Assembly (NCBI GenBank): GCA_963575745.1
Contig: CAUYUJ010000322.1
Location: 62,001-115,375, forward strand
Length of the DNA stretch: 53,375 nucleotides
Direction of reading: 5' to 3'
DNA from: Prorocentrum cordatum
Taxonomy: Eukaryota
Part shown: in pieces, positions 4,276-31,865 of the stretch
Layout of the letters: each line of letters begins with the position of its first letter
Numbering within the stretch: the stretch's first letter is position 1
The notes under the pieces: model-generated
Told to the model about the DNA's origin: nothing
Databases searched by the model: none
Seen by the model: only the letters and a program-made list of their open reading frames with translations
Program-made: the position numbers and the translations under genes

Positions 4276-7200
4276 CCAGGTTGAGGGTTCACCGCCGGTG
4301 CCAGTTGGCAGACCCGACGTTCAGAGACAATGTGGTGACCTGGGGTGGGTTTTCCTAAGATTTGAAGGATATTTGACCATTCATTTTGAGAAACCAGATT
4401 TTTCGCACCTATAGTGGGTTATGCCGCGTCTGCCAGTAAAATTCTCAGGTCCGTAGGTGCAGTATTACTATCAAAACACTTGGAGCAACCGACGTTGGAT
4501 AAAAACAGAAGAACACGATTTTTCGATTTTTCGTTTCTCGCTCCAGGAGCTTTCTTCATGTGTTCCGACGATCGCCGTGCAAGAAAAGAGCTGTAGCGGC
4601 TTACGCCACGTCTGCCAGTCAAATTCTCAGGTATGTAGATATAATATTACGTTCAAAAGACTTGCTGGGACCGTCGGCCGTTTCGAGTCATCTTGACACG
4701 CATTGACGGTTTTCTGTACTTATCTCGAGATTTCGGACAGCTACAGAGCTGATACTTAGAGAAACCAATTCAGAATCATCAGGCGCGTTCGTTCGTCCTC
4801 ATCGAGAGCTCTGAACTCGGTCTGCTGCTCGAGCTAGGTTCGTAAACCTATTCGTCTTCTTCGAGTTATTTTGACGAGTTGTGTTGGTTTTCTGTACTTA
4901 ACTTACAATTCAGAGCTGGTACGCACATGAGAGGGTTCTGTATTATTAGGCACGTCCGTCTGTTACATCGAGCGGTCTGAACTCGGTCTGCTACTCAAGC
5001 TAGGTCCGCAAAACTGTTCGTATTCTTCAAGTTCTCTTTGTAGGCTCTGTCCGTCTTCTGTACTTAACTGAAGCTGTTGCAGAGTTGCAGAGGTGGTACG
5101 CACAGAAGCCGATCCACAATTATCAGGGGCGTTCGGCTGAAGCATCTAGAGCTCTGAACACAGTCTATCCGAGCTAGGTCCGCAAAACTATTCGTATGCG
5201 ACCGATTTTTTTTCGAACTGAATTTTCTCCACTTAACTCGAGCTGCAGATGAACTTGAGAGCTCTTTCGCACAAAAATCTTGGAGAACATTCCCTTTATG
5301 TGTACGGGGCAGCCCCGCACGAGGAAAGAGCTCTACGAAGCTCCCGGTGGTAACCTGGTTGACGGTTTACCGCCGGCTCCCAGTTGGCAAGGAAAATCTC
5401 GACGGACCTTGGTGACTTTTGATCGGTTGAAAATTTTGTTCTCGAAATTCCTGAATTCGTTTGAGCTCTAGTATTTTTTCCCGTGATATTCGATCTTATT
5501 CCCGCTCGCCGTCTTGATCTCAGCTCGATCAGGTACCTTGTACTGCCAACGGACGGGATCGGCTGTTTCGAGTGATCTTGATACGCGTTGTCGGTTTTCT
5601 GTACTTAACTCGAGCTGTAGGACAGCTACAGAGTTGATATTTGATAGGAACCACTTCAGAATCGTTCGTCTGTCTCATCCAGAGGTCTGAACTCGGTCTG
5701 CTGCTCGAGCTAGATCCGCGAAACTATCCGTATTGTTCGAGTGATCTTGAGAGATGCTGTCGGTTTTCTGCACTTAACTCGGGCTGGGGTGGCTGCACGG
5801 CTGGTAGTCACAGACGCCGATTTGGAGACATCAGGCGCGTCCGCCTGTCGCATGCAGAGGTCTGAACTCGGTCTGCTACTCCAGCAGGTCGCGAAACCTG
5901 CTTGTATCGCTCGAGTCATCTCAACTAGCGCCGGCGGTGAACCGTCAACCTGGTCACCGGCGGGAACCTCGTAGAGCTCCTTGCACCCGTAAGAAAGCTC
6001 AGGATCGAAGCTGACATCTTCTGGGAGCTTTTCTAGAAAAACGTCAAATTAAGATTATTCGGAGTGAACATGAAGTCGGTTCTGGGAAGTCAACTATTTC
6101 TAAAACTGGCTCTAGAGAGCTGAGCTGCTGAGGGAACAAAGTTTATATGCCAATGCTCGGCGTAAAAATCTGCTTCCTCAAAATGAATTGTCAAATATCT
6201 TTCAGATCTGAGCAAAACCGACCCAAAGTCACCACTTTGTCCTTTCTGGTCGGGTCGACCAACTAGCTCCACCCCGCGCCGGAATTCCTCTAGCTCATCA
6301 ACGAAGAGCTCTACGAGGTACAGGGAATGTCGGTTTGCTGTACTTAACTCACGCTCTAGGTAGGGGAGCTACAGAGCTGATGCGCACAGAACCTGATTCG
6401 GAAGCATCATGCGCGTTCGTCTGTTGCATCCAGAGGTCTGAACTGAGCTTGCTACTCGAGCTAGGTCCGCAAAACTATTCGTATTCTTCAAGTCACCTTG
6501 ACAGATGTTGTCCCTTTTCTGTATTGAACTCGGGCTGTAGGAGAGCTGCAGACTGATGCAGAAGCATTGTGAGCGTTCGTCTGTTGCATCGAGAAGTCTG
6601 AACTCGGTCTGCTACCCGAGCTAGGTTCACAAAACTATTCGTATTCGACCGACAGTTTTCTTTCCAAATGGTGGTGCATTTCTTCACTGATCTCGAGCTG
6701 TTTTTCGGCCGAAAAGTCAGAAGGACGTCATGAGGCGCAAAGCATCTAGACGCTTGGTTTGGGTCTGTTGTGAGTGCAGACGCCAAGCACGGATTCGTAC
6801 TCTGCTATTTTCTTCCTAATGGTATTTTCTACGCGCTGCAGATAAGCTGCAGAACTGTTCAGCACAGCAATATCACTAGACGCCTGAGATCAGTCTGCTA
6901 TCAGCGCTCGGGCTGAAAAACTTTTCGTTCTCTGCTAATTCTTTGGACATAATATATGGTCAGGAAGCTCTACGAGTCCCCCGGCGGTAAGAAAGGTTGA
7001 CGGTTTACCGCCGGCGACCAGTTAGCAAAATTCCGAAAAGGGACGCGATCATACCTTCCGCGGCCTGGCTCGGCCGATTTTGCAGTTCTAACCATTCGTT
7101 TGGGCTGATAATTGCGCAGAGCAAAGCTTTGTATTGGAGAAGTTACCTTTAAAACGCTCAGCTCATTCTGTCGACGAATTTTCCCGAGCGAAGCCAGGGA

Positions 7201-10200
7201 ACCCCAGATTTTTTTTAAAAAGATTTCAAGAAAATCTACTGCGAAGTTCTTTGCTTCGATTCGGGGCACTCTACGCGTGTAAGGAGCTCTACGAGGTTTC
7301 CGGCGGTCACCAGGTTGACGGTTCACCGCCGGCGCTAGTTCCGGGGCGCTGGAGAGCTAGTTGGCAAGAAAAATCTCGACGGACCTTTTCGTGACTTTTG
7401 GTCGGTTCAAAATTTTGTTCTCTAAATTCAACCATTCGTTTGAGCTCTAGTATTTTTTCCCGTGATATTCGATCTGATTCCCGCTCGCCGTCTTGATCTC
7501 AGGTCGATAGGATACTTATTACTGCCAAAAAGCATCCCGGCGGGATCGGCCGTTTCGAGTCATCTTGACACGGGTTGAGAGTTTTCTGTACTTAACTCGA
7601 GCTGTAGGACAGCTACAGAGTTGATATTAATAGAAACCACCACAGAATCATCAGGCGCGTTCGTCTGTTGCATCCAGAGGTCTGAACTCGGTCTGCTGCT
7701 CGAGCTAGGTCCGCGAAACTATTCGTATTGTTCGAGTCATCTTGAGAGGTGCTGTCCGTTCCCTGTACTTAACTCGGGCTCTAGGGTGGCAACAGGGCTG
7801 GTAATTACAGAAACTGATTCAGAGACATCAGGCGCGTCCGCCTGTCGTATGCAGAGGTCTGAACTCGGTCTGCTACTCCAGCAGGTTCGCGAACATATTC
7901 GTATCGCTCGAGTCATCTTGACAGGGGCTGTTGGTTTTCTGTACTTAACTCGAGCTCTAGGGTAGCTACAGAGCTCATACTGACAGAAACCGATGCAGCA
8001 TATTCAGGCGCGTTCATCTGTTGCATCCAGAGGTCTGAAATCGGTCTGCTACTCGAGCAGGAGAGCTACAGAGGTGATACGCACAGAATCTGATTTGGAA
8101 TCATCAGGCCGGTTCGTCTGTTGCATGTAGAGGTCTGCACTGGGTCTGCTACGAGGTCCGCGAAACTATTCGTATTCTTCGAGTCATCTTGACAGATGTT
8201 GTCCATTTTCTGTATTCAATTCGGGCTGTAGGAGAGCTACAGAGCTGATACGCACAGAGAACGATCCAGAAGCATCAGGGCGTTCGTCTGTTGCATCGAG
8301 AGGTCTGAACTCGGTCTGCTACCCGAGCAAGGTTCGCAAAACTATTCGTATTCGACCGATATTTTTTTCCAAATGATGGTGAGTTTCTTCGCTGACTCGA
8401 GCTGCAGAGCAGCTCGAGAGCTCTTCGGCAGAAAATTAAAAGGATATCATGTGGCGCGAAGCATCCAGACGCTCTGTTTGGGTCTGTTTCGAGCGCAGAC
8501 GCCAAACACGGATTCGTACTCTGCTACTTTCTCCCTAATGGTACTGTTTTTCTTGGTTCTACACGCTGCAGATGAATAGAACTGTTCAGCACAGCAATGG
8601 GAAGGGAACTATCAGGGACAATAGTGAAATGTATCTAGACGCCTGAGATCAGTCTGCTATCAGCGCTCGGGCTGAAACTATTCATTCTCTGCTAATTCTT
8701 TGCGCATAATATATGGTCAGGAAGCTCTACGAGTCCCCCGGCGGTAAGAAAGGTTGACGGTTTACCGCCGGCGCCCAGTGGGAAAAATACCGGTTCTCAA
8801 GACGAATTGTTAAATTTTGCACAAAGATAGAAAAACCGACCCCAAGTCGTCACATTGTCTCTTAAGATCGGGTCGGCCATCTAGCTCGACCCTGCGCCCA
8901 AATTCCTCTTAGCTCATCTTGGCGAAGAGCTCTACGAGGTAAAAACGTATTATTCGAGCTTTTTTCCTTCACGCTTGAGAAAGCATGGGAGCCGGCGGTA
9001 AACCGTCAACGAGGTTACCGCCGGGAGCCTCGTAGAGCGCTTTTCCTGGCGCGGCGCTGCTGGGAACACATGGAAAGGGCTTCCTCAAGCGTTAGCTGAA
9101 AACTCGAAAAAAAAAAACATTTTTTTGGTTTTCATCGAAAGTCAGTTCCGCCAAGTGTTTTGATAGTAATACTGCAGCTACAGACCTGAGAATTTCACTG
9201 GCAGACGCGGCACAGACCACTACAGGTGCGAAAAATATTTTTTCTTGAAGCGAATGTTCAAATATCTCACAATGTTTGCCGAACCGACCCAAAGTCCACG
9301 CATTGTCCGTCGGGGCCGAGTCGGCCAACTAGCTCCACCCCGCCCCGAAATTCCTCTAGCTCATCGATGCCGAAGAGCTCTGCGAGGTATGGGAGCCGGC
9401 GGTAAACCGTCGACCAGGTTACCGCCGGGAGCTCGTAGAGCTCTTTCCCTTGCGCGGCGCTGCTCGGAACACATGGAAAGAGCTTTATCAAGCGTTAGCT
9501 GTTGGTATGAATTAAAAACTCGAGAAATGTTGTTTCTGGGTTTTACGCAATGTCGGTTCCTCCTAGTCTTTTGATAGGAATAATGCAGCTAGAGCCCTAA
9601 GAATTGCACGATCGAGCGCGCCATGATTCGCTGCAGAGAATAATAATCCGGATGTCCAAAACAAATTTCAAAATCTTTCAGAATCTCACAAATCCGACCC
9701 AAGTGTCACACATTGTCCGCCCCGGCCGGCTGGGTCAACTGGCGCCGGCGGTGAACCGTCAACCTAGTCACCGCCGAGAACCTCGTAGAGCTCCTTGCGC
9801 GCGTAATAATGCTCAGATTCCAAGCAGACAGCTTATTGGAGCATTTCTAGAAAAACGTCGAATTTTCATGTTTTGGTTGTCAACTTCATGTCGGTTGCTC
9901 CTAATTTTTCGATAGTAAAACTGGCTCTAGAGAGCTGAGCTGCTCAGGTAAGAAAATTTATGTGCCAATGCTCGGCGTAAAAATCTGCTTTCTCAAAATG
10001 AATTGTCAAATATCTTTTTAATATTAGCAAAACCGACCCGAAGTCACCAGATTGTCTTCTGGTCGGGTCGGCCAACTGGGAGCCGGCGGTAAACCGTCAA
10101 TCTGGCTACCGCCGGGAGCCTCGTAGAGCTCTTTTCTCCTGCGGCGCTGCCCCGAACACGTTAAGGGAGTTGTCGGCAAGATTTCTGTGCGGAAGAGCTC

Positions 10201-10793
10201 TCAAGCTTAAAAATCACCATCGGTTCGCAAAAATCGGTTGCATACGAACAGTTTTGCGGACCTAGCTCGAGTAGCAGACCGAGTTCAGACCGCTGGATGC
10301 AACGGACGAGCGCGCCTGATGATACTGAATCCGTTCATGTGCGTACCAGCTCTGTATCTATTCTGAATCTTGAGTTTAGTACAGAAAACCGACAGCACTT
10401 CTCAAATTAACTCGAGGAACACGAATAGTTTTACGGACCTAGCTCGAGCAGCAGACCGAGGTCAGACCTCTAGATGCAAGAGACGAACGAGCCTGATGAT
10501 TCTGGACCAGTTTCTGCAAGTATCGGCGTTGTAGCTCTCCTATATCTCGAGTTAAGTACAGGAAACCGTAAACGCGTCTCAAGATGGCTCGGAACACAGT
10601 CGGTTCCTCCAAGTGTTTTGATAGTAGTACTGCACCAACGGGCCTGGGAATTTCACAGGCGCAAGCGTCATAACCCACTGCAGGTGCGAAGAATCTGGTT
10701 TCTAGGAATGAATGTCAAATATCTTTCAAATCTCAGCAAAAACGACCCCAAGTCGTCACATTGTCTCTTAACGTCGGGTCTGCCAACTGGGAA

Positions 10794-10826
10794 CCGGCGG
10801 TAAACCGTCAACCTGGTTACCGCCGG
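10794..10826 (-). other. Representative copy of a recurrent 33-bp imperfect palindrome, CCGGCGGTAAACC-GTCAACCT-GGTTACCGCCGG
   Basis: Intact copies lie near 5344, 5931, 6981, 7300, 8738, 8993, 9396, 9745, 10084, 10794, 11319, 13824 and 14012, in both orientations. Nearly all are adjacent to GAGCTCTACGAG or its reverse complement. Confidence 0.9.
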
Positions 10827-11127
10827 CAACCTCGTAGAGCTCTTTTCTTGCGCGGCGATCGTCGGAACGCATGAAGAAAGCTTCTGGAGCGAGGAACGAA
10901 AAATTAGAAAAAAATCACGTTTTTCTGTTTTTATCCAACGTCGGTTCCTCCAAGTGCTTTGATAGTAATGCTGCACCTACGGACCTAAGAATTTGACTGG
11001 CAGACGCGGCATAACCCACTACAGGTGCGAAAAATCTGGTTTCTCAAAATGAATGGTCAAATATCTTTCAAATCCTCGCAAAACCGACCAAAAGTTAACG
11101 CTTTGTCCGCCCGGGCCGGGTGGTCCA

Positions 11128-11312
11128 ACTAGCTCCACCCCGCGCCGGAATTCCTCTAGCTCATCGATGCCGAAGAGCTCTGCGAGGTACTAGCTCCACC
11201 CTGCGCCCGAATTCCTCTTAGCTCATCTTGCCGAAGAGCTCTACGAGGTACTAGCTCCACCCAGCGCCGGAATTCCTCTAGCTCGTCGATGCTGAAGAGC
11301 TCTATGAGGTAC
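11128..11312. repeat. Three tandem ~61-bp units
   Basis: ACTAGCTCCACCCCGCGCCGGAATTCCTCTAGCTCATCGATGCCGAAGAGCTCTGCGAGGT x3. Single copies also lie near 6262, 8880 and 9328. Confidence 0.9.
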
Positions 11313-12010
11313 TGGGCGCCGGCGGTCACCGGTCAACCTTTCTTACCGCCGGGGGATCGTAGAGCTTCCTGACCATGTATTATGTCCAAAGAATTAGCAG
11401 AGAACGAATAGTTTTTCTGCCCAGCGCTGATAGCAGACCTGATCTCAGGCGTCTAGTGATATCCCATTGCTGTGCTGAACAGTTCTTTAGCTCATCTGCG
11501 TGTAGGAAATACCATTAGGGAGAAAATAGCAGAGTACGAATCCGTGTTTGGCGTCTGCGCCCACAACAGACCCAAACCAAGCGTCTAGATGCTTCGCGCC
11601 TCATGATGTCCTTCTGATTTTTCGGCTGAAGAGCTCTCGAGCTGCTTTGCAGCTCGAGTTCAGTGAAGAAATTCACCAAGATTTGGAAACAAATATCGGT
11701 CGAATACGAATAGTTTTGTGAACCTAGCTCGGGTAGCAGACCGAGTTCAGACCTCTCGATGCAACAGACGCATCGAGAGGCCTGAACTCGTTCTGCTACT
11801 CGAGGTAGGTCCACAACACTATTTGTATTTCTCAAGTTCTCTTTAGAGGCGCCGTCGGTATTCTGCGCTGAACTCTAGCTGCAGCACAGCTACAGAGCTC
11901 GTACGCACAGAAACCGATGCAGAATCATCAAGGGCGCTCGGCTGAAGCATCTAGAGCTTTAAAAAGAGTCTGCTACTCGAGCTAGGTCGGCAAAGCTATC
12001 TGTATGCGAC

Positions 12011-12092
<82 letters not shown>

Positions 12093-12193
12093 CCCCCCCC
12101 CCTTTTCTCTTCTTCTTCTTTAAAAAATGCTCTCGCTTAAGCTTCCCTCACGTAATCCGAGGAGCGCTGGGCAAGGAAAGAGCTCTAAGAGGT

Positions 12194-12278
12194 GCCTTCT
12201 CTAGCTACCCTGTGCTCCGTTTGGGAGTCTGAGGGCTCAGCTGTCACAGCTGTCCGCGCCCTGACTCAAACCCAAAAA
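12194..12278 (+). mobile_element. Very short 5'-truncated retroelement 3' end (UTR plus A-rich tail)
   Basis: Non-satellite sequence replaces the left arm of the palindrome. It ends CAGCTGTCACAGCTG...TGACTCAAACCCAAAAA directly before the right half-site and resembles the end at 12614-12660. Confidence 0.55.
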
Positions 12279-12301
12279 CCTGGTTGACGGTTTACCGCCG
12301 G

Positions 12302-12660
12302 TTTCAAGTTTTGAATCGTACCCTACTCCAATCGCCATCAGAGGTGCCTTCGATGGCGGGGTGTGTCCTTTGGGATCAGGATGTGGTTTTTGGCTTCATA
12401 TTGGCATGTTGAACAGAGAATACGTGAGTGAGGAGCTCGGATTTGCACAGCCTAGCCCTGTCGGGACTGCTACGCCTCTCGTTTGGAGAGATGTGGCTGA
12501 GGCCGCGTGGCTCCTTGAAGGAGCGACAATCACGTAATGTGAACTTAGTGCCGCCGAGGCGCTTCTTTGCGTTGCTCGCTCGTTGCTTTGGGACTTGCGA
12601 GACTCGTCTCCTCCAGCTGTCTCGCAGCTGGTGCACATGAGCCCAAACAAACAAAACAAA
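12302..12660 (+). mobile_element. 5'-truncated non-LTR retrotransposon carrying only the terminal RNase H half and an (AAAC)-type tail
   Basis: Translates IAIRGAFDGGVCPLGSGCGFWL...WRDVAEAAWLLEGATIT*CELSAAEALL (not in the ORF track). This matches 3880-4128 and 30435-30710. It is flanked by near-direct repeats at 12279-12301 and 12661-12684. Confidence 0.85.
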
Positions 12661-14610
12661 CCGAGGTTGACGGTTTACCGCTGGCTCCCAGTAACTCGTA
12701 GAGTTTCCCGTAGCTCGTTGCTGGAAGCTTAAGAGTATTTCCGGGGCGCCGGAGAGCTAGTTCGCAAGAAAAATCTCGACAGACCTTTTGCTAACTTTTG
12801 GTCGGTTGAAAATTTTGTTCTCGAAATTCAACAATTCGTTTGAGCTCTAGTATTTTTCCCCGTTATATTCGATCTTATTCCTGCTCGCCGTCTTGATCTC
12901 AGCTCGATCGGGTACCCTTTACTGCCAAAAAGCACTGCGGCGGGATCGGCCTTTTCAGTCATCCCGACAGGCGTTGTCGGTTTTTTGTGCTTAACTCGAG
13001 ATTTAGGAAAGCTACAGAGCTGATAGTCGCAGAAACCGATTCAAAATCATCAGACGCGTTCGTCTGTTGAACCGAGAGGTCTGAACTCGGTCTGCTACTC
13101 GAGCTAGGTCCGCGAAACTATTCGTATTATTCGAGTCATCTCGACAGGTTCTGTCGGTTTTGAGGTCTGAACTCGGTCTGCTACTCGAGCTAGGTCTGCA
13201 AATTTATTCGTATCATTCGAGTCATCTTGACAGGTGCTGTCGGTTTTCTGTACTCAACTGTAGGACAATGACAGAGCTGGTACGCACAGAAGCCGATTCA
13301 GAATCATCAGGCGCGTCTGTCGCTAGCATGTAGAGGTCTGAACTCGGTCTTCTACTCGAGCTAGGTCCGCGAAGTATTCGAATTCTACGAAATTTGTTGA
13401 CGGATGCTGCCGATTTTCGGTACTTAACTCGAACTGTAGAAGAGCTACAGAGCTGATGCGCATATGTAACGGATTTAGAATCATCGTGCGCGTTCGTCTG
13501 TTGCATCCAGAGGTCTGAACTCGGTCTGCTACTCGAGCTAGGCTGCGAAACTATTCGTATTCTTCGAGTCATCTCGACAGGTGCTGTCGGTTTTCTGTAC
13601 ATAACTCGGGCTGTAGGGAATCTTCAGAGCTGGTACTCACAGGAACCGATTCATCAGGCGCGTCTGTCTGTTGCATCCAGAGGGTAGCAATGGGAAGGAT
13701 ATTGTCAGCGGCAATGCTATCTAGCCGCCTGAGACCAGTTTGCTATCAGCTCGGGCTGAACAAATTTTCGTTCTCTGCTAATTCTTTGGACATAATGCGT
13801 GGAAAAGAAGCTCTACGAGTCTCCCGGCGGTAAGAAAGGTTGACGGTTTACCGCCGGCGCCCAGTTGGACACCCCGCCTGGACGGACAAACTTGGCGGAC
13901 GCAACTTTGTTGAAAACAAGGGCATCAATTTTTCGAGTGCCAAGCTGAGATTCGAAGCAGTCTCGTCGTATTCTGAGCCTCTCCTCAAGTGTGAAAGGTC
14001 TACGAGGGCCCCAGCGGTAACCTGGTCGACGGCTTGCCGCCGGCTCTCAGTAACTCGTAGAGCTTCCCTAAGAGCGACATAGCGAAGCTAGAGAGTAATA
14101 CCTCGTAGAGCGCTTCGGTATCAATGAGCAAGAGGAATTCCGGCGCGGGGTGCAGCTAGTGTGCCCGCCCGGCCCCGGCAGACAATGTGTGAATTTTAGG
14201 CCGATTTGCCGAGCAATTTGTGAGATGTGAGCATTCGTTTTGGGAAACTTGATTTTTATTCCCTGTTGTCGATAATCGCGCGTTTAATTGTGTAAGTGAC
14301 TAGAGCTTGCCTAAGAGCGAAGCGGCGAAGCTAGAGAGTAATTCCGGCGCGCTGGGGGGCTAGCTGGCCAAAAATATATCGACGGATGTTTCTTTGTTTT
14401 TTGACTTATGTTAAAATGATTTTGTCGAAGTCTGAGCTTTCGTTAGAGCTCCTAGTATTTTTCTCTCCATATTCGATCTTGTTCCTGCTCGCCATCTTAA
14501 TCTCAGGTCGATCGGGTGCATATGACTGTCAAAAAGCACTCAGGCGGGATCGGCTGTTCAGTGTCATCTTAGCAGGTGCTGTCGGTTTTCTTAACTTAAC
14601 TCGAGCTGCC

Positions 14611-15630
14611 TATGACACGTCATGCCACTCTCTGGGGGGAAAGGCGAGTCTGTACATATGGGGATAATGGATATAAAGAAAGCGTTTGATCATGTGACGG
14701 TTTCGCTGGTGATCCGCGCGATGGAACATCTCAGATATCCAGCAGATTTGATTATTGCACTTGTGGAGCCCATGATTGGAAACACAGCAGTTTTTGATTT
14801 CCAGGATGTGTGCAGTGAAGAGATCCTGTATAACAAGTCGGTGCGAACTGGAGGGAAAGAAGGTCCAGTACTCCTCAATATTGTGTTGGAGGCAATATGG
14901 GCCTCTATTGCTGAAACATGGGAAGCATGTAATTATGGGGTACGATTGGAAGGCGAAGGGGCACAACAGGCGCTGGTCAACCATTACATATGGGCAGATA
15001 ATGTGGTGCTGTTGGCAGCCTCGGCGAATCAGCTGAGGAATATGGTGAGTATGCTGACCGTTGCCCTCAGACGGGCTGGTATGGACTGGAAGATTGGGAG
15101 TCTGGAGTATCTGGTTTTTGGGCTGAGACAGAACCAGTGGCCACAATCATTAGTATGTGAACTGGGAGATGATATTTGTACGCGGGCTGGAGACCCCAAC
15201 CTACCTTATCAATTACGTGAGGCGGTGGTTCTGCCGAGAAAAAGTGAGTGTGACATACTGGGGGTTAATTTTGTGACGAACCCGAGGGATTTCCAAGCAT
15301 TACGGCACCGTATTGATGCAGGCAGGCGGTGTTTCTATGCTGATATTAATTTCTATCGATCACGGGCGGTGAACATGAGGGAAACAGTCAGACGGTACCA
15401 GAGCACAGTTCAACAGACTATATGCCGCGGATGTGTGGGGTGGAGCTGTAATGAACATGTACTTAACATATTGAGAAGCTTTGAAGGAATATGTCTCAAC
15501 ACAATGCGAGGATTACATAGAAACGAGACGGAAACGTGGGAGGAGTTCAGGGATCGCAGTACCAATAGATCCAGGGAGATGCGCAAAGAGGGGGGGGGTT
15601 CAAAACGTTGGTGGAGAAAGTCGTGAGATT
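14611..15630 (+). pseudogene. Non-LTR retrotransposon reverse transcriptase fragment (domains 3-7 and thumb)
   Basis: GIMDIKKAFDHV, VRTGGKEGPVLLNIVLE, HYIWADNVVLLA (14991), CDILGV. It is truncated by satellite on the 5' side and by a simple repeat on the 3' side. Confidence 0.9.
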
Positions 15631-15639
15631 TTTCACGGA

Positions 15640-16330
15640 TTCCTGGCTTCATGATTTCATTGTTTTCCCATGGTTTCTCCATGGTTTGTCCATGGCTTCC
15701 TGGTTTCATGGTTTCATGGTTTTTCCATGGTTTCCCGGTTTCACGGTTTCCTGGTTTCATTGTTTTTCCATGGTTTCACTGCGGTTTCACGGCTTCCTGG
15801 TTTCATGGTTTTTCAAAGGTTCCATGGTTTCTTGGTCTCATGGTTTTTCATTGTTTTTTCATGGTTGCGCAATGGTTTCACCATGGTGTCCTGGCCTCCT
15901 GGCTTCCTGGTTTCATGTTTTTTTTCAATGGTTTCACAATGGTTTCCTGGTTTCCTGGTTTCATGGTTTCATTGCTTTTCCATGGTTTCATATTTTCCTG
16001 GTTTCATGGGTTCCTGGTTTCGTGGTTTTTCCGTGGTTTCACCATGGTTTCCTGGTTTCCTGGTTTCACGGTTTTTCATTGGTTTCATGGTTTCCTGGTT
16101 TCCTGGTTTCCTGGTTTTTCCATGGTTTCACAATGGTTTCATAGCTTCCTGGTTTCATTGTTTCATGTTTTCCCATGGTTTTTCCATGGTTTCATGATTG
16201 CCTGGTTTCATGGTTTCATTGTTTTTCCATGGTTTCCTGGCTTCCTGGTTTCATGGTTTCATGGTTCTTCAATGGTTCCACCATGGTTTTTCAGGTTTTC
16301 ATGGTTTTTCCATGGTTACATTGTTTTTCC
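15640..16330. repeat. Degenerate 8-10-bp simple repeat (CATGGTTT / CCTGGTTT)
   Basis: Visible directly. It produces spurious FHGFLVSW-type ORFs in all frames. Confidence 0.95.
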
Positions 16331-18689: not shown

Positions 18690-21179
18690 ATGGCGTTTGC
18701 GATCAATACTGTCGGCCGTCGCTCAGCCGACCAAGGCAGGACGGTGAACCCTGAGGACGTGGAGGCCGCTCTCGACATGCCAGACTTCCTTTTCCGCCCA
18801 GTCGACCAAGTCGCCCACATGCTGAACCTGATCGACGTGGTGATGGCATGGTCGGGCAACATCGATGAGGAGACGGTCAAGGCGGCCGTGGAGAGCAGAG
18901 GGGCGCAGGCAATGGAGAACGTGCCAGATGTGCTGAAGATTCCAGCAGGAGCGCCTGCGAGCGTGAAGGCGCAGTTCGTTGTTCAGCGGGCTGGCGTTGG
19001 GCGGTACAACGTGTTGCGCCACTTCATTTTCAAGCACGGCACCAGCCTAAAGCGCGCAGACACGCGCCTGTACACCATGGGCCAGTCGGCGACGTTCCCT
19101 GCGGCCGAGGACTCCAACACTTGGGGCCAGCGGAAGAATTTCAATGCGATGCTCGACCGCTTGCCAGGATTCCAAGTGCGCCATTTCAGTGTGACCCGCA
19201 AGGAGCCCAGAGATCAGCAGGGGAAGGGCTGGGACCCCACGCCAGAAGAGATCCGCGACGGCTTCGCGTACATCCGCGAGCACTACCACGAGATTGCTGG
19301 TTCAAGCGCGATCGAAGCGCAGGAGTGGGTGCTTCTGCAGACTAAAATCCGATCGAGCGCTTGCTTTGGGTGGCCAACCAGCCAGATCGAGAAGGCGTTG
19401 GTGAACATGGACAAGGCATCAGCTTCGGCCGACGTAGACATATTCTTCCCGCTGACGTCGTACGACCTGCATCCTGTCATCCAGGAGCTTCTGCTGCCGT
19501 TGATCTACGCTTTCGCCCCGCTCTCTGGTACCATGGTGCTCGGCGCTCCCGGAGTGGGGAAGACTCCCTTGTGCCAGATTGCAGCCATGGCGTGGGGGCG
19601 GTACGTGACGCGGAGCAAAGGCATCGACAAGAAGCCTGGCTTCCGGCGGGGCAAACAGATGGACGTCTTTCGGGATAAGGCAACGCCCGTGTATGAAGGC
19701 ATCTTGCTCGACGACCCCTCTCTGGATCGCATTGACATCGAGGACCTCAAGGCCTTCGGTACAGTCCACACAGCGGGTCATTGTGACGCTCGGTATACTC
19801 CCCCTAAGTGGGCCAAGGGCCAGTTCCACGCGCTTCTCAGCAACTGCTGGTCGGAAGATGCTGAGCCGCCAGACTCGGCGGAATTCTCCATCGACCCCCA
19901 GCTGTTCATGAGAATGCTCGAGAAGCCTTTCGGCTACCTCAGCCAGTCGCACAGGCTCGCCCTCACTAAGCGGTTCGTGCTCGTTGTGGTCGGCAGGCGC
20001 GCGTTGTACGTGCGAGCGCCTAGCTCCGATGACGCCGCCCAGATCTTTAAGTTCACTCAGGGCAACGTGGCCTCTGACTTTCTGTTGCCAGACCACAAGG
20101 ACGCCCTCGCTGGCTTCTACCAGGGCATGGATCACGAGGACTGCGTGCACCCAGATTATGCGCTGCACGTCGAAAACGAATACAGTCTCGTATGCGAGGT
20201 GCAGGAGGCGGTGCGGCAGAAGACCGCAGAGGAGATCGCCTCGTGGTGGGCGAACCGCACGGCCGATCGTCTATCGTCAGCCAGTGGCGCACCACCTGCG
20301 CCATCCATCCACCATGTCCCTGCTACTGCTGGTACGCAGGCATCCGACGCTGGCGGCGTGCGCGTGCGAGCGGATGCTGACGGCCAGTATCGCTTCCGCC
20401 TGCCAGCCGCGGGATCGCTGGCACCGCCAGGCGGATCGCGCCGCGCTTTCCGATACCCTCTCTCCGCGAAGCGTGAGCGCGAGGAGTTGGATCGGACCGA
20501 CGCGCCTGGCGGCCCGAGGCCGAGGAGGGGCCTCGGCAGCGCCGCCGAGGGCGCTGCGCGGGCCAGCGCCAACGGCGCCAGATCGGCGTCGGGCGCGGGG
20601 GCGACGCCGCATGGCCTAAAGGAAGAGTTCAGCAGCCCCCCTGCGGCCCCCGCCGTGGATAGCATTGGCGGCGCTGTGATCGACGTATTGTCCAGCGGAG
20701 AGGAGGGCGACGCTCCGCCCGCGCCGCTTGCTCGCTACCCGCGGGGAGCACGCCTGTGCGACAGATCGTTTGGCTGCATCGTGTCGATGCAGTTCCGCCC
20801 CGAGAACGTGCGGCGCTACCCAGACTGCTGCATCCTGGATGCCCTGAACGCCATCGGCGTTCCCGTGCCTTACGATCACGCCGGCCCCTACACTTTGGAT
20901 GAGGCAAAATCCCTGCTCAACCCGTTCGGTCTGTCGTTGCTCCGCTCGCATCCCAGATCGGCCAGAGGTTCTCAGGCAGGACGCTACATCATCGTTTACA
21001 GCATCGCACCCAATCGTCCTGGGCACGCTGTGGGTGGCATTGTATCCAAGGGCCGCGTGCATTTCTTCGACGGTTTGCGAGAGCAGGTCCGTGCGGGCCA
21101 TTCCGCCTGGCACCGGCTGCCCGACGGCACTCCCTCGTGGATCTGTGATTGGTATCAGGTGGTCTGCTGCGTCGCATGA
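18690..21179 (+). CDS. ~830-aa protein: unknown N-terminal domain, SF3-like P-loop helicase/ATPase, low-complexity linker, C-terminal papain-like (Josephin/C39-like) cysteine protease
   Basis: Uninterrupted ORF with first ATG at 18690. Walker A GAPGVGKT (19542), Walker B ILLDD (19701), CDARY, motif C LLSN (19833), ALTKRF (~19960). The C-terminus has DCCILDALNAIG (20823), GHAVG (21021) and HFFDG (21060). Confidence 0.75.
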   Translation: MAFAINTVGRRSADQGRTVNPEDVEAALDMPDFLFRPVDQVAHMLNLIDVVMAWSGNIDEETVKAAVESRGAQAMENVPDVLKIPAGAPASVKAQFVVQRAGVGRYNVLRHFIFKHGTSLKRADTRLYTMGQSATFPAAEDSNTWGQRKNFNAMLDRLPGFQVRHFSVTRKEPRDQQGKGWDPTPEEIRDGFAYIREHYHEIAGSSAIEAQEWVLLQTKIRSSACFGWPTSQIEKALVNMDKASASADVDIFFPLTSYDLHPVIQELLLPLIYAFAPLSGTMVLGAPGVGKTPLCQIAAMAWGRYVTRSKGIDKKPGFRRGKQMDVFRDKATPVYEGILLDDPSLDRIDIEDLKAFGTVHTAGHCDARYTPPKWAKGQFHALLSNCWSEDAEPPDSAEFSIDPQLFMRMLEKPFGYLSQSHRLALTKRFVLVVVGRRALYVRAPSSDDAAQIFKFTQGNVASDFLLPDHKDALAGFYQGMDHEDCVHPDYALHVENEYSLVCEVQEAVRQKTAEEIASWWANRTADRLSSASGAPPAPSIHHVPATAGTQASDAGGVRVRADADGQYRFRLPAAGSLAPPGGSRRAFRYPLSAKREREELDRTDAPGGPRPRRGLGSAAEGAARASANGARSASGAGATPHGLKEEFSSPPAAPAVDSIGGAVIDVLSSGEEGDAPPAPLARYPRGARLCDRSFGCIVSMQFRPENVRRYPDCCILDALNAIGVPVPYDHAGPYTLDEAKSLLNPFGLSLLRSHPRSARGSQAGRYIIVYSIAPNRPGHAVGGIVSKGRVHFFDGLREQVRAGHSAWHRLPDGTPSWICDWYQVVCCVA

Positions 21180-21780: not shown

Positions 21781-21801
21781 AAGAGATACCCGTTCTTTGA
21801 G

Positions 21802-21907
21802 ATGGGCAAATTTGTGCCGAAACGCGGTAGACTTCGCAATGGTTCGCTCCCGCGTCATGGACAGACTTTTTTTTTTTTTTTTTTGTTTTTTTTTGATGTT
21901 TTTTTTT

Positions 21908-21963
<56 letters not shown>

Positions 21964-23225
21964 TTTTTTTTTTTTGTTTTTTTTTCCTTTTTTGTTTTTT
22001 TTTTTTTTTTTTTTTCTTTTTTTGTTGTTTTTTTTTTTGTTTTTTTATTTTTAGACTTTGAAGCTCATCAAAAAGCCTGCGGCGCAACCGCGCTCGCGGC
22101 AGAGTGCTCGAGCGCGCGCCACTTACACGCAGTCCGCGGCCGCGGAGATCAAAGGAGATCCACGCGATCGAAAAGTCAGTAAGAATTTGGTTGACCTGGC
22201 TCGCATGACGGAAGCAGAGATTTGGAATTTCATGCTCAAGGTTGATTTCGCGAAAGATTTGCATGGGGAACGCTGTCCAGTGTGTAAGAATGGATATCTG
22301 GGTGCCAAGCAATTTCGATCTGATGGGAGTAAGCCGTTCCACCGCTGCTCGTCTTATAAATGCCAGCGCCGTGAGTTCCCATGGGGGCAATGTCCGCTTT
22401 TACACCATGGGCGACGTTCAGCTCCTCTCCAGCAGCAGCTCATGAACTTACTGTGCCTGTCCACGACGAACTCAGTGACTAGCACCATCCATTTGACGGG
22501 GCATGCGCGCAGGTCTGTCATACACACGCACGGGTTACTACAGAATGCTCGTAAGTTGTACGTGCAGCGGAAGGAGAAGACCATGACTTTTGGCAGTGAC
22601 AAAAGAGTGCCAGCAGCGAAGTGGCACGACATCGAAGTAGACGAGGCCTCTTTCGGCAAGATGCTACTCCGACCTCCACGCAGCGCGTCTGACCACTGCC
22701 TCGCATGGGAGAACTGGATCGGTATTCTGCGCCGTGGTCACCCAGGTTCTCTCATGCTCATTCGTTCGAAAAAACACGCCCACCCTGGCGAGATCGCCAG
22801 GTCCAGGACCGATCACTAAGGACCAGTGGAAATGCATAGCAAAGAAGCACTTGCAGAACCGATGTGTCGTTATACACACAGATTCAGCACGAGCATACCG
22901 TGAAACCAATATTCCGGGAACGGTGCGGGACCAAGTCGTACACCAGAAGAAACGAGTTTTTAACAACAAGACTAAGCGGTTCACGTGGACGAAGCCTAAA
23001 TACGTGGGCACTGTGCAGCACAGCGTTGATGGCAAACGATTTTGGCGCAAGTCTGGAACTCAGACAGTTGATAGCTGCTGGAGATTCCTGAAGTCTCGCA
23101 TTCACAAGAATCAATGTATGAAACCAGGCTCGCGCGCCTTTACGGTGGCAGTCAAGTCTGCACAGTACGAATATTGGACGAGAGGCATGGACCCTTGGGA
23201 GGCAATGTCTTTGCTGCTCAAATGA
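21802..23225 (+). pseudogene. IS1595/Merlin-family DDE transposase (~410 aa reconstructed), interrupted by a T-rich tract and a 1-nt frameshift
   Basis: Zn ribbon CPVC..HRCSSYKC, an HTH-like segment, IEVDEA (22631), IHTDSARAY (22871), VVH, and GTQTVDSCWRFLK (23055). Removing the 190-bp T tract and one A at ~22770 gives a single 411-codon frame. Confidence 0.85.
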
Positions 23226-27433: not shown

Positions 27434-28030
27434 GTTTGTCTTCCTTCGTCCGCGCACGTGCGTCGAGGCATTGCCTGCCCTGCTGTCGTTATCCCGTTTC
27501 CCAGTTAGAAGTGCTTGAGAGCGCCTGCAGAGAGAATCCGCCACCGAGAAAAAATTATAGCCCATCCGTTGCCATTGCAGCAGGCCGCATCTACCACCGT
27601 CGTTGATCGTGCATTTCTCGGGGAGCGCACGACAACCGCGCGTATTGCCCGATAGGGTGCCGCCGCGCATATATATATATGAATATCCTGTACTATATTC
27701 TTAGGCTGTTTCTCCCCCTCCTCCTTCTCCTCCTTCTTCCTTCTCCTCTTCTTCTCCTCCTTCTACCCCTTCTCGTTGTCCTCCCCCGCATCCTCTCCTC
27801 CTACCCCTCCTCTCATCCTTCCCATTCCTTCTTCCCCTCCTCCTCCTGCCCCACTCCTCCTGCCCCTCCTCCTCATGCCCCTCCTCTCCTTCTCCTCCTC
27901 GCTCCTTCTTCCCCTCCGCGTCCACCTCATGTAACCGCGCCCTCGCGCGCGCGGGGTGCGATATTGCCGCGCCCGCATCCCTTTCATGTATATCGCACGG
28001 GGGCTCTACGAGTTCCCGACGGTAACCAAG

Positions 28031-28721
28031 ATTCCTGGTCACGCCCCCCCCCAAGGTGCCCAATGCTGTTTCCCTGGAGGACACGCGCAAGATGTGTCTA
28101 CTGCCCTTGGTCTCAAACTGGTATAGTATGTGTCTTGCGAGCCTGGCTGAAACCCAGCTGGCGGAGAGTGCTACTTCGCTGTGTGTGTCTCTGGGTTTTC
28201 CAGGGGGCGGAGGCCGCGAGAAATTACGGCGGTTGCGAAGAGGTTGTGTCAACATGCGGCGTGGTGGGGTAAGGGGGGGGGGGGGGGGGGGTGGGGTCTC
28301 TCTTCTTGGGGTCGGCGGACGTACTGCAATGCTTCGACTACGTATCGGTACCACTTGCGATGAAGAGTATGCTGGCTTTGGGTTTCCCACGTTCCTTGGT
28401 ATGTGCCATGCTCGCGCCTCTGGGGGGGAACAAGTGTAAGATGGCGTTCAAAGGAGTGTGCTGGGAGGACTGGGTCTCTTGGGATAAGGCCATGCGCGCG
28501 GAGGAGTGGAGAGCCCTTTGCTATTCAAGGTTGTGTCGATCTACATGTGGAGGGGTGGTGAGGAGGTGGGGGTTGCGGGGTGGGTGGGGGGTTGTGTGTG
28601 TGTGTGTTGTGGTTGTGTGTGTGGTGTGTGTGTGTGTGTGTGGGTATGGGGTGGTGGGTGGGGTGGGGTGGGTGGGGGGGTGGGGTGGGGTGGGGTGGGG
28701 TGGGGTGGGGTGGGGTGGGGT

Positions 28722-28755
<34 letters not shown>

Positions 28756-30770
28756 TGGTGGTGGTGGTGGTGGTGGTGGTGGTGGTGGTGGTGGTGGTGT
28801 GTGTGTGTGTGTGGGGGAAGCAGAATGTGGGTTATGTGCTTGAAACACCACTCCGAAACGCGCGGACACGCATCACGCATGCGTTGTGGGCGGACAACAT
28901 GTGCATTTATGCACGTTGGAGGGAAGAGCTCCAACAAATGATGCGGGACCTCGCGGAGCCGTTGGCTTGGGCTTGTTTGCGGTGGAAGCCCTCGTCGCTT
29001 GGGTTCTTGGCCAGTGGCATTCCATGGGCACCCGACGACCATATTGTTGTGCATGTGCCTGCGTATGGTGGTCCCTTCTCTCTCCAGCGTGTGAGTGCGA
29101 TGAGTGCCTTGGGGTTCCAGGTGAGCGACGCGTGGAATGCGCGCTCGGACCTTCAGTACAGCTTGATGAGAACGGACAAGGCATGGTTCAGGGATCTGCG
29201 ACACGATCAGTGTAGACAGGTACCACTACGAGAGCGTTTCCAGCGGTACTGCACCCGTGTCCAGAGTGTTGCGTTGTATGCGTGTGAGGGGATGACACTG
29301 GATAGGACGACTATACATCAATTGCACGTGTGGGAGGGTAATCACTTAGCTATTCTTGGTGGAAAACGTAAGGGTACAGGTGAGGATTGGGCGAGTTTTG
29401 TCAAGAGATGACTGATGTTTGGTCGGTCGTCCTTTCATTGTCTAGGATTTCAATCGATTGTGGAGCGTTTCTCTCCGAAACAATGGAGCTGCGCAAAGGA
29501 GATTGCTGCGTCTGCACGACCGCGCAGCACGGGCCCTGCTCTGCCACAATACGTCGACGCGGACTCGCACGCCCCGACCCGACGAGCACGGGCGCGACTT
29601 GTGAGGGAGTGGGCGAGTAACGGGAGAGCTCGCACTGAGGTTTCGATATCATCTTCGTCGAATCTACCTTCAGTTTTAGATCACGACACGCCCATGGAGA
29701 CGGAGACCGCTTCACATCTGGGTGTCCTGGAGATCACGCGTGCGGCGATGCTACACAGTCTGGGACGCGGGACGGAGCGCCGTGACGCTTTTGTGGCGAC
29801 GATGAGGTCGTCTCAGGAACGTGCGCCGTGGACTCGAGTGAGGAGCGGTGCACCACCGCGCGGTCGCAATGCGTGGGGCTGTTCATTTGTGTCGGTGGGT
29901 GGCGTGGAGTGGTGACTCAACCTAGATTGGTGAGAACAAGGGTTTCAGGTGTTCATACGTCAAGTTTGCGACGAGCACGTCTATGCATGGTTTCAGGTCA
30001 CGGAGTGTCGCGGGGCAGGAGGTGCTGCGTCTGTTGAACGCGGCCATAGTGACCCTGCAGAGGCGGAGGTGACAAGGATTGCACCACGACTGGCGGCGAA
30101 CTTCGAACATGAAACGACCTTTACACGACGGGAAGGGATTGTTCTGGAATTGAAAGGGGGTTCTGTGCTGATCACGAACTGGATGAGAGGAGTGTGGTAT
30201 ACGAACAATGGGAAATATCAGCAGCAGGTGGGACAAACATTTGATATGCTGGATGAGGCTTGTAGGAATCTGGATATTGTGACGCCTTCTTGAGGATGTG
30301 ATTTGTGGATGTACTATTGTAGAGAAAGCAATGCGCGTTCAGATACTCTCACATGGGAGCTAAGAGATCAACTTGGCATGGGTAGGAAATATATTAACCA
30401 CAACTTTATGGATTACCGAACGGAGACGCTGAGCGCGATCCGTGGTTCGTACGACGGTGGCGTCTCGGAAGCAGGGGCTGGGGGGGGCTGGTGGCTGGAG
30501 GGGGAGTTTACTTACAGGAGTGGACACAGTGTCGAAGGGCAGGGTGAAAAGGCATGGGCTTCATGGATTAGGCTTCTCGGCGAGGAGGCCTTTGGGCTAC
30601 CAGGTGAGTCCGCCGTGACGGTCTGTGAGTTTGAGGCTGCTGTACGGCTTTCGCGTTCCGCTTGCGAGATGCTGAAACAGCATCGGCACTTTTCAGGGCT
30701 CAATGTATAGCCTCCCGAGCGCCCCGCGCGTGGCCACCTGCTCGGACCGAAAGCGACCGGAAACAAACAA
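28031..30770 (+). mobile_element. 5'-truncated, decayed non-LTR retrotransposon: RT, post-RT region, permuted RNase H, AAAC tail
   Basis: PKVPNAVSLEDTRKMCLLPLVSNWY, ADVLQCFDYVS, VESPLLFKVV, LWADNMCIY (28887), LELKGGSVLI (30144), YCRESNARSD, IRGSYDGG (30450), VCEFEAA, stop 30710, tail GAAACAAACAA. The left half-site is at 28003-28030 and the right half-site at 30768-30790. Confidence 0.88.
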
Positions 30771-31865
30771 GGGTGACGGTTTACCGCTGGCTCTCAATCT
30801 CAGGGCTCTGGCTGAAGCAGAGCGCTCAAAGATGACTCGTAGAGCGCCTAAGAGCGAAGCGGCGAAGCGAGAGAGTAATTCCGGCGCGCTTGGGGGCTAG
30901 TTGGCCCGAAAATTTTCGACGGAAGTTTTGCAAACTTTTGGTCGGTTACAAACCATTTTCTCGAAATCTGAAAATTCGTGGGAGTTCTAGTATTTCTTTC
31001 CCCACTATTCGATCTTATTCCCGCTCGTCATCTTAATATCAGGTCGATCGGGTACATATTAGTGCCACAGAGCACTCGGGCGGGGTCGGCTGTTCAGTGT
31101 CATCTTGACAGATGCTGGTGGTTTTCTTGACTGAACTCGAGTTGCAGATGAGATGCAGAGCGGTTCGGTGCAGCAATCGAAAGAGAGTTATCAGAAGCGC
31201 TAGTCTCAAGTATCTAGATGTCGGAACTCGCTCTGCTACCAGAACTGGGTCCGAAAAATTAGTTGTACCCTGCTAAACTTGTAAGAGTCGATGATGACTT
31301 TATTGACTGAACTCGAGCTGCAGATGAGCTGCAGAGCTGTTCGGCACAGCAATCGAAATATATTCATGAGAAGCGCTAGTCTCAAGTATTTAGATGCCCG
31401 AACTTGCTCTACTACCAGAGCTGGGTCCGAACCACTTTTCGTACTCTGCTAGTTTTTTATGAATGAGTTGATGATGACTTTCTTGACTTAGCTCGAGCTG
31501 CAGACGAGCTAGAGAGCTGTTCGGCACAGCAATGGACACATATTCAGCAGAAGTGCTAGTCTCAAGTATCTAGATGCCCGAACTCGCTCTGCTACCAGAG
31601 CTGGGTCCGAAAATCTATTCGTACTCTGCTAATTTTCTAAGAGATTATGATGACGTTCTTGAGGTAACTCGAGCTGCAGATGAGCTACAGAGCCGTTCGG
31701 TGCAGCAATCGGACGAACATCATCAGGAACGCTATTTCTGAGTATCTAGATGTCTTAGATCGGTCTGCTACGGAGTTGAAACCAAACAGCTATTCGTATT
31801 CTGCTATTTTTTGTATTTCTTGGAGAAATGATGATAGTTTTCTCTTTTTCATTCGAGCTGTAGGC
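30771..31865. repeat. Second block of the satellite complex (diverged ~177-185-bp units)
   Basis: 30840-31145 matches 14305-14610. ACTCGAGCTGCAGATGAGCT-like motifs lie near 31135, 31312, 31492, 31668 and 31853. Confidence 0.9.

Follow-up and report, generated by a model that had tools for sequence, protein, structure and literature searches.

Copies of a LINE-type retrotransposon family in Prorocentrum cordatum end at one position of a conserved repeat unit with a predicted hairpin: a probable case of target-specific insertion

The stretch of DNA analysed here (53,375 nt of contig CAUYUJ010000322.1 from Prorocentrum cordatum, referred to below as the window, whose own coordinates are used throughout) carries several broken copies of a family of long interspersed nuclear elements (LINEs) as well as many copies of a short repeat unit, and the family looks site-specific because four of the broken copies end at the same base of that unit. 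The window is eukaryote-like and rich in repeats, with many tandem arrays, and is interrupted by a single assembly gap (N at 2819-2918), which leaves 53,275 non-N bases. A search of the whole window against Rfam at the gathering threshold gave no matches, the target unit included. An earlier note on this DNA had proposed that non-long-terminal-repeat (non-LTR) retrotransposons insert here into a satellite palindrome, and its individual claims are taken up below where the results bear on them.

Results

The repeat unit and its intact copies

The unit is approximately 57 bp in length and reads GCTCTACGAG-(C-rich spacer)-CCGGCGG(A/T)AACC in its left half and (A/T)GGTTGAC-GGTTTACCGCCGG-CnnnnA(G/C)T in its right half. 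When folded as single-stranded DNA it is predicted to form a CCGGCGGTAACC/GGTTTACCGCCGG stem closed by an 8-nt loop, a structure obtained in five of five folds, with z-scores of -2.3 to -4.5 in four of them and of -0.96 in the fifth (window 13996-14064), and the point at which the LINE copies are inserted coincides with the boundary between the 5' arm of this predicted hairpin and its loop.

Scanning the window for the right half-site GGTTGACGGTTTACCGCCGG with up to 3 mismatches yielded 17 matches against a shuffle mean of 0.01, a number reached in none of 100 shuffles. Thirteen of them have the left half (CTCTACGAG..CCGGCGGTAACC) directly upstream and thus constitute intact "empty" units, in agreement with the approximately 13 nearby empty sites reported earlier, while the other four (4279, 12282, 12665 and 30771) are preceded by sequence foreign to the unit and represent filled sites. 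An independent scan for the left half gave 14 occurrences, namely the 13 empty units and one at 28006-28027 that runs into unrelated sequence, this being the only left half in the window with no right half adjoining it.

On the forward strand the empty units lie at 5331..5384, 6968..7022, 7287..7340, 8725..8779, 13811..13865 and 13998..14062, the last being a short 65-bp form closed by the outer arms GTCTACGAG / CTCGTAGAG; on the reverse strand they lie at 5923..5976, 8984..9037, 9388..9440, 9737..9790, 10075..10128, 10786..10839 and 11311..11364. In four of these, GAAA replaces CC(A/T) exactly at the LINE insertion point (6990-6994, 8747-8751, 13833-13837 and, on the reverse strand, 11339-11343, within a unit that is also degenerate), and all four share one common type of upstream flank. 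Such variants could be the footprint, later amplified, of an aborted or extremely truncated insertion, or merely a subfamily variant.

Four filled units

The four retroelement inserts that end at the right half of the unit are named c1, c2, c3 and c4. All four filled units are on the forward strand, as is the coding sequence inserted into them, and re-reading of the junctions placed the 3' ends at 4275, 12278, 12660 and about 30769, i.e. all four 3' ends of the family that are visible fall within approximately 2 bp of one position in the unit, as had been noticed before. By hand arithmetic, taking a 3-bp window, the correct orientation, 17 units and the 53,275 non-N bases, the chance of such a coincidence is about 5e-4 per random insertion and about 5e-14 for four out of four. 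Tails of the A/CAAA type are present on three of the four inserts and end at the same nucleotide, which again corresponds to the earlier observation, and the ambiguity of the junction between tail and target amounts to at most 2-3 nt (CC).

The first insert, c1 (2919..4275, forward strand), is the 3' part of an element, comprising the C-terminal region with a permuted RNase H-like domain disrupted by one frameshift and a 3' untranslated region (UTR) of about 147 nt, its 5' side having been lost in the N gap at 2819-2918. Proteins of the family align to it by tblastn over 3011-4119 (P0031 at E 6e-30, and also P0007 and P0025). At its 3' junction (4275/4276) the sequence ...cgcaga is followed by ccaGGTTGAGGG, and the right half that it fills (ccaGGTTGAGGGTTCACCGCCGGtgccagt, 4276..4305, forward strand) continues downstream into the same flank as in empty units, e.g. 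that at 10794(-).

The second insert, c2 (12197..12278, forward strand), is an 82-nt fragment of 3' UTR that ends in caaacccaaaaa and is joined to cctGGTTGACGG at 12278/12279; about 50 nt of it can be aligned with the 3' UTR of c1. Its 5' junction, overlooked in the earlier note, reads ggaaagagctctaagaggtgcc followed by ttctctagc (about 12196/12197), so that a partial left half (CTCTAAGAGgtgcc, 12183..12196, forward strand) precedes the insert, approximately 10 bp of the target being missing, and the flank further upstream resembles those of the empty units 9396(-) and 10083(-). The right half-site that follows c2 (12279..12301, forward strand) is at the same time the upstream copy of a 23-bp direct repeat surrounding c3. 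This third insert (12302..12660, forward strand, 359 nt) contains the last 80 or so codons of the C-terminal domain, with the motif IRGAFDGG, and a 3' UTR with a (CAAA)-type tail; tblastn matches span 12241-12567 (P0085 E 8e-13, P0025 E 7e-9). Its 3' junction is ...caaacaaacaaaacaaa against ccgaGGTTGACGG (12660/12661), with the right half after it, including an outer arm ACTCGTAGAG, at 12661..12703 on the forward strand. The direct repeats described earlier around c3 were found as claimed, being two 23-bp copies of the right half, CCTGGTTGACGGTTTACCGCCGG and CCGAGGTTGACGGTTTACCGCTGG, and this arrangement fits a 23-bp target-site duplication with c2 inserting later into the upstream copy.

The longest insert, c4 (28031..30769, forward strand, 2.7 kb), extends from the reverse transcriptase (RT) to the C-terminus and carries several stops and frameshifts, a G-rich microsatellite at 28540-28830 and the tail ggaaacaaaca, which meets aGGGTGACGG at about 30769/30770. 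It aligns with family proteins over 28035-30683 (tblastn; P0025 residues 731-1296, E 1e-40; P0085 residues 516-1262), which places its 5' truncation at about residue 516 of the family protein. As had been stated in the earlier note, it lies between the two half-sites: a full left half (ctctacgagttcccgacggtaaccaag, 28004..28030, forward strand) adjoins its 5' end and a right half (30770..30844, forward strand) its 3' end, the distal outer arm ACTCGTAGAG of the latter being located at 30836-30844.

Left-half sequence therefore stands at two of the three readable 5' junctions of the four inserts, in full at c4 and in part at c2, and in the three readable cases the target site was altered by duplication of 23 bp, by duplication of 3-4 bp and by loss of about 10 bp. 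The C-terminal peptides encoded before 4276 and 12661 are 27% and 37% identical to that encoded before 30770, in line with the earlier view of highly diverged copies that were inserted independently, while the abutting 28-nt right halves of the filled sites are 74-89% identical. When the 82 nt preceding each junction were compared by end-gap-free identity, values of 0.67-0.84 were obtained, with means of 0.73-0.76 for shuffled sequence; this measure is a poor one, and all it shows is that the UTRs of the copies cannot be clearly aligned. Contigs of run X1 that were mapped to 28840-30900 include the same DNA as the window at approximately 2-3x and a few c4 paralogues that are 88-93% identical, with a summed depth of 118-597 over the half-site and the downstream repeat; runs X2 and X3 placed no contig on this interval.

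The protein family

Among 18 open reading frames (ORFs) of the window, Pfam recognised only an RT, at 14616-15626 (RVT_1, E 4e-11), which lies in an RT fragment of the family at 14610..15626 on the forward strand. This fragment aligns by tblastn over 14637-15596 with P0085 (E 4e-43) and P0025 (E 4e-41), contains the sequence WADN at RT motif C (14994-15005) and has its 3' part lost in a (CATGGTTT)n array. The microsatellite of the (CATGGTTT)n type that directly interrupts it covers about 700 bp (15640-16330).

The three longer inserts share, by tblastx, the motif (I/V)RG(S/A)(F/Y)DGG...G.G(W/F). Their three C-terminal peptides were combined into an alignment (A1), and a profile made from it was searched against 1.84 billion representative proteins, giving 61 proteins at E<=1e-3, of which 18 reached E<=1e-10. 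In most of these rows the matched domain lies at the C-terminus or within about 70 residues of it, in a few rows it is found mid-protein, and three long rows were rejected as unrelated repeat proteins (WD40, Ig-like). Full-length members measure 1279-1455 aa (P0025 with 1306 aa, P0048 with 1455 aa, P0085 with 1279 aa, P0087 and P0089) and have RVT_1 in the middle of the protein, Pfam E-values being 2.6e-8 for P0025, 1.1e-7 for P0048 and 3.8e-13 for P0055. All members found outside the window derive from ENA/JGI metagenome assemblies, and a search of viral contigs based on P0048 returned no related loci.

By tblastn, c1, c3, the RT fragment and c4 map to co-linear parts of the family protein. 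Compared with solved structures, a profile built from the five full-length sequences matched human L1 ORF2p at E ~1e-10 (over the RT and the region upstream of it) and R2Bm at 1.6e-4, and the nearest Atlas clusters carry Exo_endo_phos, RVT_1 and RNase_H. The motifs LQE, DANVEL and LSDHALV were read by eye in the A5 consensus, and a regular expression for a CCHC-type motif (C..C..H..C) matched none of the five full-length proteins. The RT is of the non-LTR type and the copies are 5'-truncated with a common 3' end; judged from these sequence features, the reading of the inserts as 5'-truncated copies of one non-LTR retrotransposon family is supported.

A permuted RNase H-like domain and an unusual RT motif C

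The C-terminal segment, which the earlier note had taken for RNase H, does contain RNase H-like motifs, albeit in an order that differs from the canonical one and below the threshold of Pfam. Reading towards the C-terminus, GDS and RE.N..AD are followed after some 35-45 residues by (F/Y)DGG and T.T..EL, so that the two halves are reversed with respect to the canonical arrangement. Regular expressions for GDS, (F/Y)DGG and T.T..EL matched all five full-length proteins and that for RE.N..AD four of them (P0085 fails, its other three motifs being in order); the shorter family members have the identical permuted motif order, and within the window the permuted domain is found at 3600-4125, 12304-12534 and 30100-30707. 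The four carboxylates of RNase H (D, E, D, D) are all represented in these motifs, with RE.N..AD again in four of five, and D240 and E301 of P0007 are invariant in 25 sequences.

Neither RNase_H nor RVT_3 of Pfam matched at threshold, and the C-terminal pieces of the window matched no RNase H family even at E<=10; below threshold, positions 63-119 of RVT_3 match upstream of FDGG in P0025 (E 0.011). An AlphaFold model of P0007, made with the 25-sequence alignment, has a pLDDT above 90 over residues ~110-322, except for a loop at ~261-280 (61-72). The canonical succession of beta1-3, alphaA, beta4, ..., beta5, alphaE is not that of the family, and the order of strands and helices in the P0007 model fits beta4...alphaE followed by beta1-3 and alphaA. 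In this model, residues 125-214 can be matched to the C-terminal portions of three RNase H1 chains with Z 3.4-3.7 and 21-29% identity. The P0005 model (pLDDT 92) has its best structural match, out of 48,161 chains, in 3u3g_D, one of the chains just mentioned: with Z 4.6 and an rmsd of 2.1 A, residues 42-127 of the model align to residues 1-69 of the chain, and further RNase H domains are among the top rows. The same RNase H, 3u3g_D, is the best sequence match of the family profile in the PDB (chain residues 76-134, E 0.5, weak), and Foldseek searches of the PDB with the P0007 and P0005 models gave nothing at E<=0.001. The fold matches to solved RNases H cover half-domains only (Z 3.4-4.6); sequential aligners cannot span a permutation. 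Each of these scores is weak, and in combination they fit a predicted circular permutation of RNase H. A literature search for circularly permuted RNase H in retrotransposons found nothing relevant at the level of keywords.

Motif C of RTs is usually ADD. In the family it is (W/Y)ADN in nine of ten distinct RTs, the tenth, P0001, having AGN; the ADN form was read in P0025, P0048, P0085, P0087, P0088, P0089, P0055 and P0031, in the RT fragment of the window and in c4 (at ~28887-28898).

The unit in marine metagenomes

An exact-pattern scan of marine metagenome contigs for the unit gave at least 124 stretches (loci L001-L120), and all counts of metagenome units given here and below apply among the matches listed. 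Both halves are present at 119 of 128 right-half sites with enough upstream sequence. Of the nine sites without a left half, five lie on coding contigs of high GC content and are apparently chance matches in bacteria, two are degenerate and the remaining two are L042 and L117. Flanks are unique at 91 of 107 fully flanked sites. The satellite palindrome named in the earlier note as the target is thus hairpin-forming, as proposed, but not merely local, being dispersed with unique flanks in marine metagenome contigs.

Around the right half-site, positions from about -28 to +27 have a high information content, which falls to zero outside this block and breaks off sharply behind CnnnnA(G/C)T; an alignment of 67 units has the consensus GCTCTACGAGT-(C-rich)-CCGGCGG(A/T)AACC-(A/T)-GGTTGACGGTTTACCGCCGGC. 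Compensatory changes occur in the stem of a few copies, CCAGCGG being found with CCGCTGG (L047, L059) and CGCGCGG with CCGCGCG (L065); the variant in L065 also pairs CTCTACAAG/CTTGTAGAG. The contigs that bear units have a GC content of 0.34-0.58, are mostly non-coding and often contain several units in either orientation, and ordinary genes adjoin some of the units (pantoate ligase, pyruvate kinase, MOSC, PAPS reductase). The units themselves are nearly invariant and often occur in arrays, spaced by 340-700 bp, or as inverted pairs (e.g. L065, L004, L002, L033, L059).

In 34 non-redundant cases a left arm like CTCTACGAG (<=2 mismatches) is accompanied within about 650 bp downstream by the inverted outer arm CTCGTAGAG (<=1 mismatch), the closed inverted-arm forms being as short as 63-66 bp; in two of the 34 pairs the sequence on both sides is direct, not inverted. 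The unit therefore has the terminal inverted repeats (TIRs) that characterise miniature inverted-repeat transposable elements (MITEs) and TIR DNA transposons. No target-site duplication was seen by eye around the unit in the 34 arm-pair rows, because the bases outside the arms are inverted and not direct repeats of each other, as in many of these rows (untallied), e.g. ggaag/cttcc and ctaccg/cggtag. The unit resembles the conserved core of inverted-repeat elements of the foldback or MITE-like kind. Interpretations as the 3' end of a Helitron, as an intron-like element or as an integron-like attC site were dropped, the flanks having no defining feature of any of these. At L050:114-242, on a contig with a GC content of 0.36, a palindromic unit dimer of 129 bp directly precedes an 842-aa ORF or overlaps its start; this ORF was considered as a transposase and rejected, as it is an ordinary-looking surface protein.

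The unit pattern was absent from viral contigs (0 matches), and the nine stretches found in prokaryotic genome contigs consist of bacterial chance matches and two contigs of a Nitrospinota metagenome-assembled genome, one of which is L004. In the literature the 20-mer and both 13-mers of the unit had no match, and 10-mers appeared only in unrelated work among the matches listed.

Other fragments and features of the window

An endonuclease-like N-terminal fragment, frameshifted near 610-640, is located at 169..700 on the forward strand. By BLASTP its ORF (169-672) is similar to the N-termini of the family (P0048 residues 16-115, E 1e-5; P0025 residues 5-79, E 3e-5), which makes the link drawn in the earlier note between the endonuclease at 181 and the elements beyond the assembly gap a reasonable one at the level of the family. 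Pfam did not match the fragment; LQE and, past the frameshift, VDANVE were read in it by eye. Between this fragment and the N gap lies a tandem repeat of 102 bp (1355-2815, 14 copies, 95% matches), and c1 and the piece at 169-672 therefore need not belong to one copy. Together with c1-c4 and the RT fragment, the window thus holds at least six fragments of one LINE family.

An uninterrupted ORF of 900 aa (18477-21179, forward strand) encodes a P-loop, GAPGVGKT, and has weak similarity to AAA+ proteins (E 0.06), no Pfam or PHROGs family having been matched. Tandem and inverted repeats of 46 bp (17527-18354) lie on one side of it and a T-rich run (21867-22052) on the other, and it may belong to a further mobile or virus-like element. 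The window also includes very long T runs, one of 81 T at 12012-12092 and one of about 186 nt, mostly T, at 21867-22052, which may represent either the poly(A) tails of retro-copies on the minus strand or artefacts of the assembly. A GC-rich tandem array (GC ~0.72) at 37369-39992, whose period is approximately 145-150 bp, consists of CCCG-type repeats with embedded GTTAGGGT motifs.

Discussion

We consider it likely that members of a LINE-type family are inserted into the conserved ~57-bp unit, with its predicted hairpin, at a single position and by target-primed reverse transcription. As far as their sequences allow them to be assigned, the proteins of this family are composed of a putative N-terminal apurinic/apyrimidinic (AP) endonuclease-like region, an RT with (W/Y)ADN at motif C and a C-terminal RNase H-like domain in permuted order. 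In the mechanism we envisage, the endonuclease of the element would nick the bottom strand at about 5'-CC(A/T)GG^TTACC-3', the freed 3' end would prime cDNA synthesis on the A/CAAA-rich 3' end of the element, and cleavage of the second strand would be imprecise, leading to the gain of 23 bp, the gain of 3-4 bp and the loss of about 10 bp. The pairing between the TT of the site and the A-rich tail that had been suggested earlier has the wrong polarity, because GGTT is on the element-sense strand and the bottom strand, from which priming would occur, has AACC. Since the unit is multicopy and strongly conserved, it may serve as a harmless landing site, comparable to the ribosomal DNA (rDNA), telomeric repeats or Tx1D used by site-specific LINEs already known.

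Several observations weigh against this interpretation. The insert c1 has no A-rich tail, and the alterations of the target site are heterogeneous, which would also fit insertion of a repair type. The 5' junction of the RT fragment lies in a 176-bp satellite and not in the unit, and this fragment, whose 3' end is missing, may be an exception that was inserted outside the unit. Support for the endonuclease is weak: Exo_endo_phos matched just one of the five full-length proteins, P0048 at residues 20-86 (E 0.05, 13.8 bits against a cutoff of 24.5), and the family profile hit no solved endonuclease chain at E<=1. Four junctions in one 53-kb window make up the whole sample, all filled sites coming from it because the metagenome loci contain no filled unit: 108 of 109 left halves there are followed by the right half, the remaining one being spurious. 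Searches of the 120 loci by tblastx and tblastn with the window copies and the family proteins revealed no LINE homologues either. Since repeats assemble poorly, the missing filled sites in metagenomes are weak evidence. On 28840-30900, the contigs of run X1 bridged no new LINE/unit junction, a result that lends the proposal no help and is in itself neutral.

The heterogeneous target sites, the tailless c1 and the position of the insertions at the arm/loop boundary of the predicted hairpin would all be expected if hairpins or cruciforms formed by the unit broke at that boundary and the breaks captured LINE cDNA in an endonuclease-independent repair process, the specificity coming from DNA structure. 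We regard this as unlikely, given that all four inserts belong to one family and share one orientation (orientation alone being a weak argument, as the last three would agree with the first by chance with p = 0.125), that three of the four have retained their full A/CAAA tails, which end at the same nucleotide, and that neither the 17 units of the window nor the 109 metagenome left halves nor 119 of the 128 right halves are interrupted by sequence of any other kind.

Two further explanations dispense with repeated insertion at a chosen target. The filled sites might all descend from one ancient insertion that was copied along with the satellite array and diverged afterwards; the tandem, mosaic nature of the region and the similarity of about 50 nt between the 3' UTRs of c1 and c2 are compatible with such a history, which is nevertheless very improbable, because the truncation points and tails of the inserts differ, as do their 5' flanks, because their proteins are 27-37% identical as opposed to 74-89% for the right halves, and with c4 lying 16 kb away in a different context. 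Alternatively, the right half-site could be the terminal sequence of the element itself or a 3' transduction that travels with it, as its presence after every tail and on both sides of c3 would seem to invite. This we hold to be extremely improbable, since the left half of the unit stands at the 5' junctions of c4 and c2, the sequence past the half-site continues as in empty units, and complete LINE-free units exist at 13 sites in the window and 119 in metagenomes, 91 of which have unique flanks. The presence of the left half at these two junctions argues for independent insertions into the unit and against a half-site carried by the element.

If insertion by target-primed reverse transcription at the unit is correct, the family would differ from those that use an RNA gene, a telomere or a microsatellite in having a novel type of target, namely the loop boundary of a hairpin repeat that is conserved. 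Going further, and only tentatively, we suggest the possibility, rather than the probability, that it constitutes an undescribed LINE lineage of marine protists, with a circularly permuted RNase H that has kept its four catalytic carboxylates and with ADN at motif C, which homes to the arm/loop boundary of a ~57-bp hairpin repeat, itself undescribed and widespread in marine eukaryotes. In such a lineage, target recognition may depend on DNA structure besides sequence. Site-specific LINEs are natural models for programmable safe-harbour gene insertion by target-primed reverse transcription, and each further pair of target and endonuclease widens the toolbox for insertion and shows how specificity evolves. 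The intact proteins offer two unusual enzyme features, the putative permuted RNase H and the ADN motif C of the RT. Interest also attaches to the target unit itself, whose ~57 bp hardly vary between marine metagenome contigs ranging in GC content from 0.34 to 0.58.

Comparison with known systems

The best sequence matches among solved structures are human L1 ORF2p and Bombyx R2, the similarity being distant and limited to the RT, and the family is unlike both: L1 lacks both an RNase H and site specificity, and R2 uses a restriction-like endonuclease. RNase H is found in several clades of LINEs with an AP endonuclease (APE), namely I, LOA, Tad1, Ingi and relatives, with which the family has in common the order of domains (endonuclease, putative in the family, then RT, then RNase H-like) and from which it differs in the permuted RNase H motifs and in having ADN instead of ADD at motif C of the RT.

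Target-specific APE LINEs described in PMC1919474 include TRAS1 and SART1 (telomeric repeats), R1 (28S rDNA) and Tx1L (Tx1D); the endonuclease of the R1 clade is reported there to dictate the position of insertion, with about 10 bp recognised around the nick. R1, TRAS1 and SART1 resemble the family in their single insertion position within a multicopy target, their 5'-truncated insertions and their fixed 3' junction, their targets being rDNA or telomeric repeats and that of the family a hairpin unit. The zinc-finger-like motif described in that source at the C-terminus of R1-clade ORF2s (PMC1919474) contrasts with the absence of any match to the regular expression in the five full-length proteins of the family.

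By analogy, the family appears closest in logic to Tx1L with its target Tx1D (Xenopus laevis, Tx1 clade), the likeness being that of a LINE located at a defined site inside another multicopy repeat. It differs from Tx1L by its C-terminal RNase H-like domain, Tx1 having to our knowledge no RNase H domain. The targets also differ, Tx1D being, according to PMC4494074, a family of non-autonomous piggyBac DNA transposons that serves as the insertion target of Tx1, whereas the unit targeted in P. cordatum is palindromic, measures about 57 bp and showed no target-site duplication around it.

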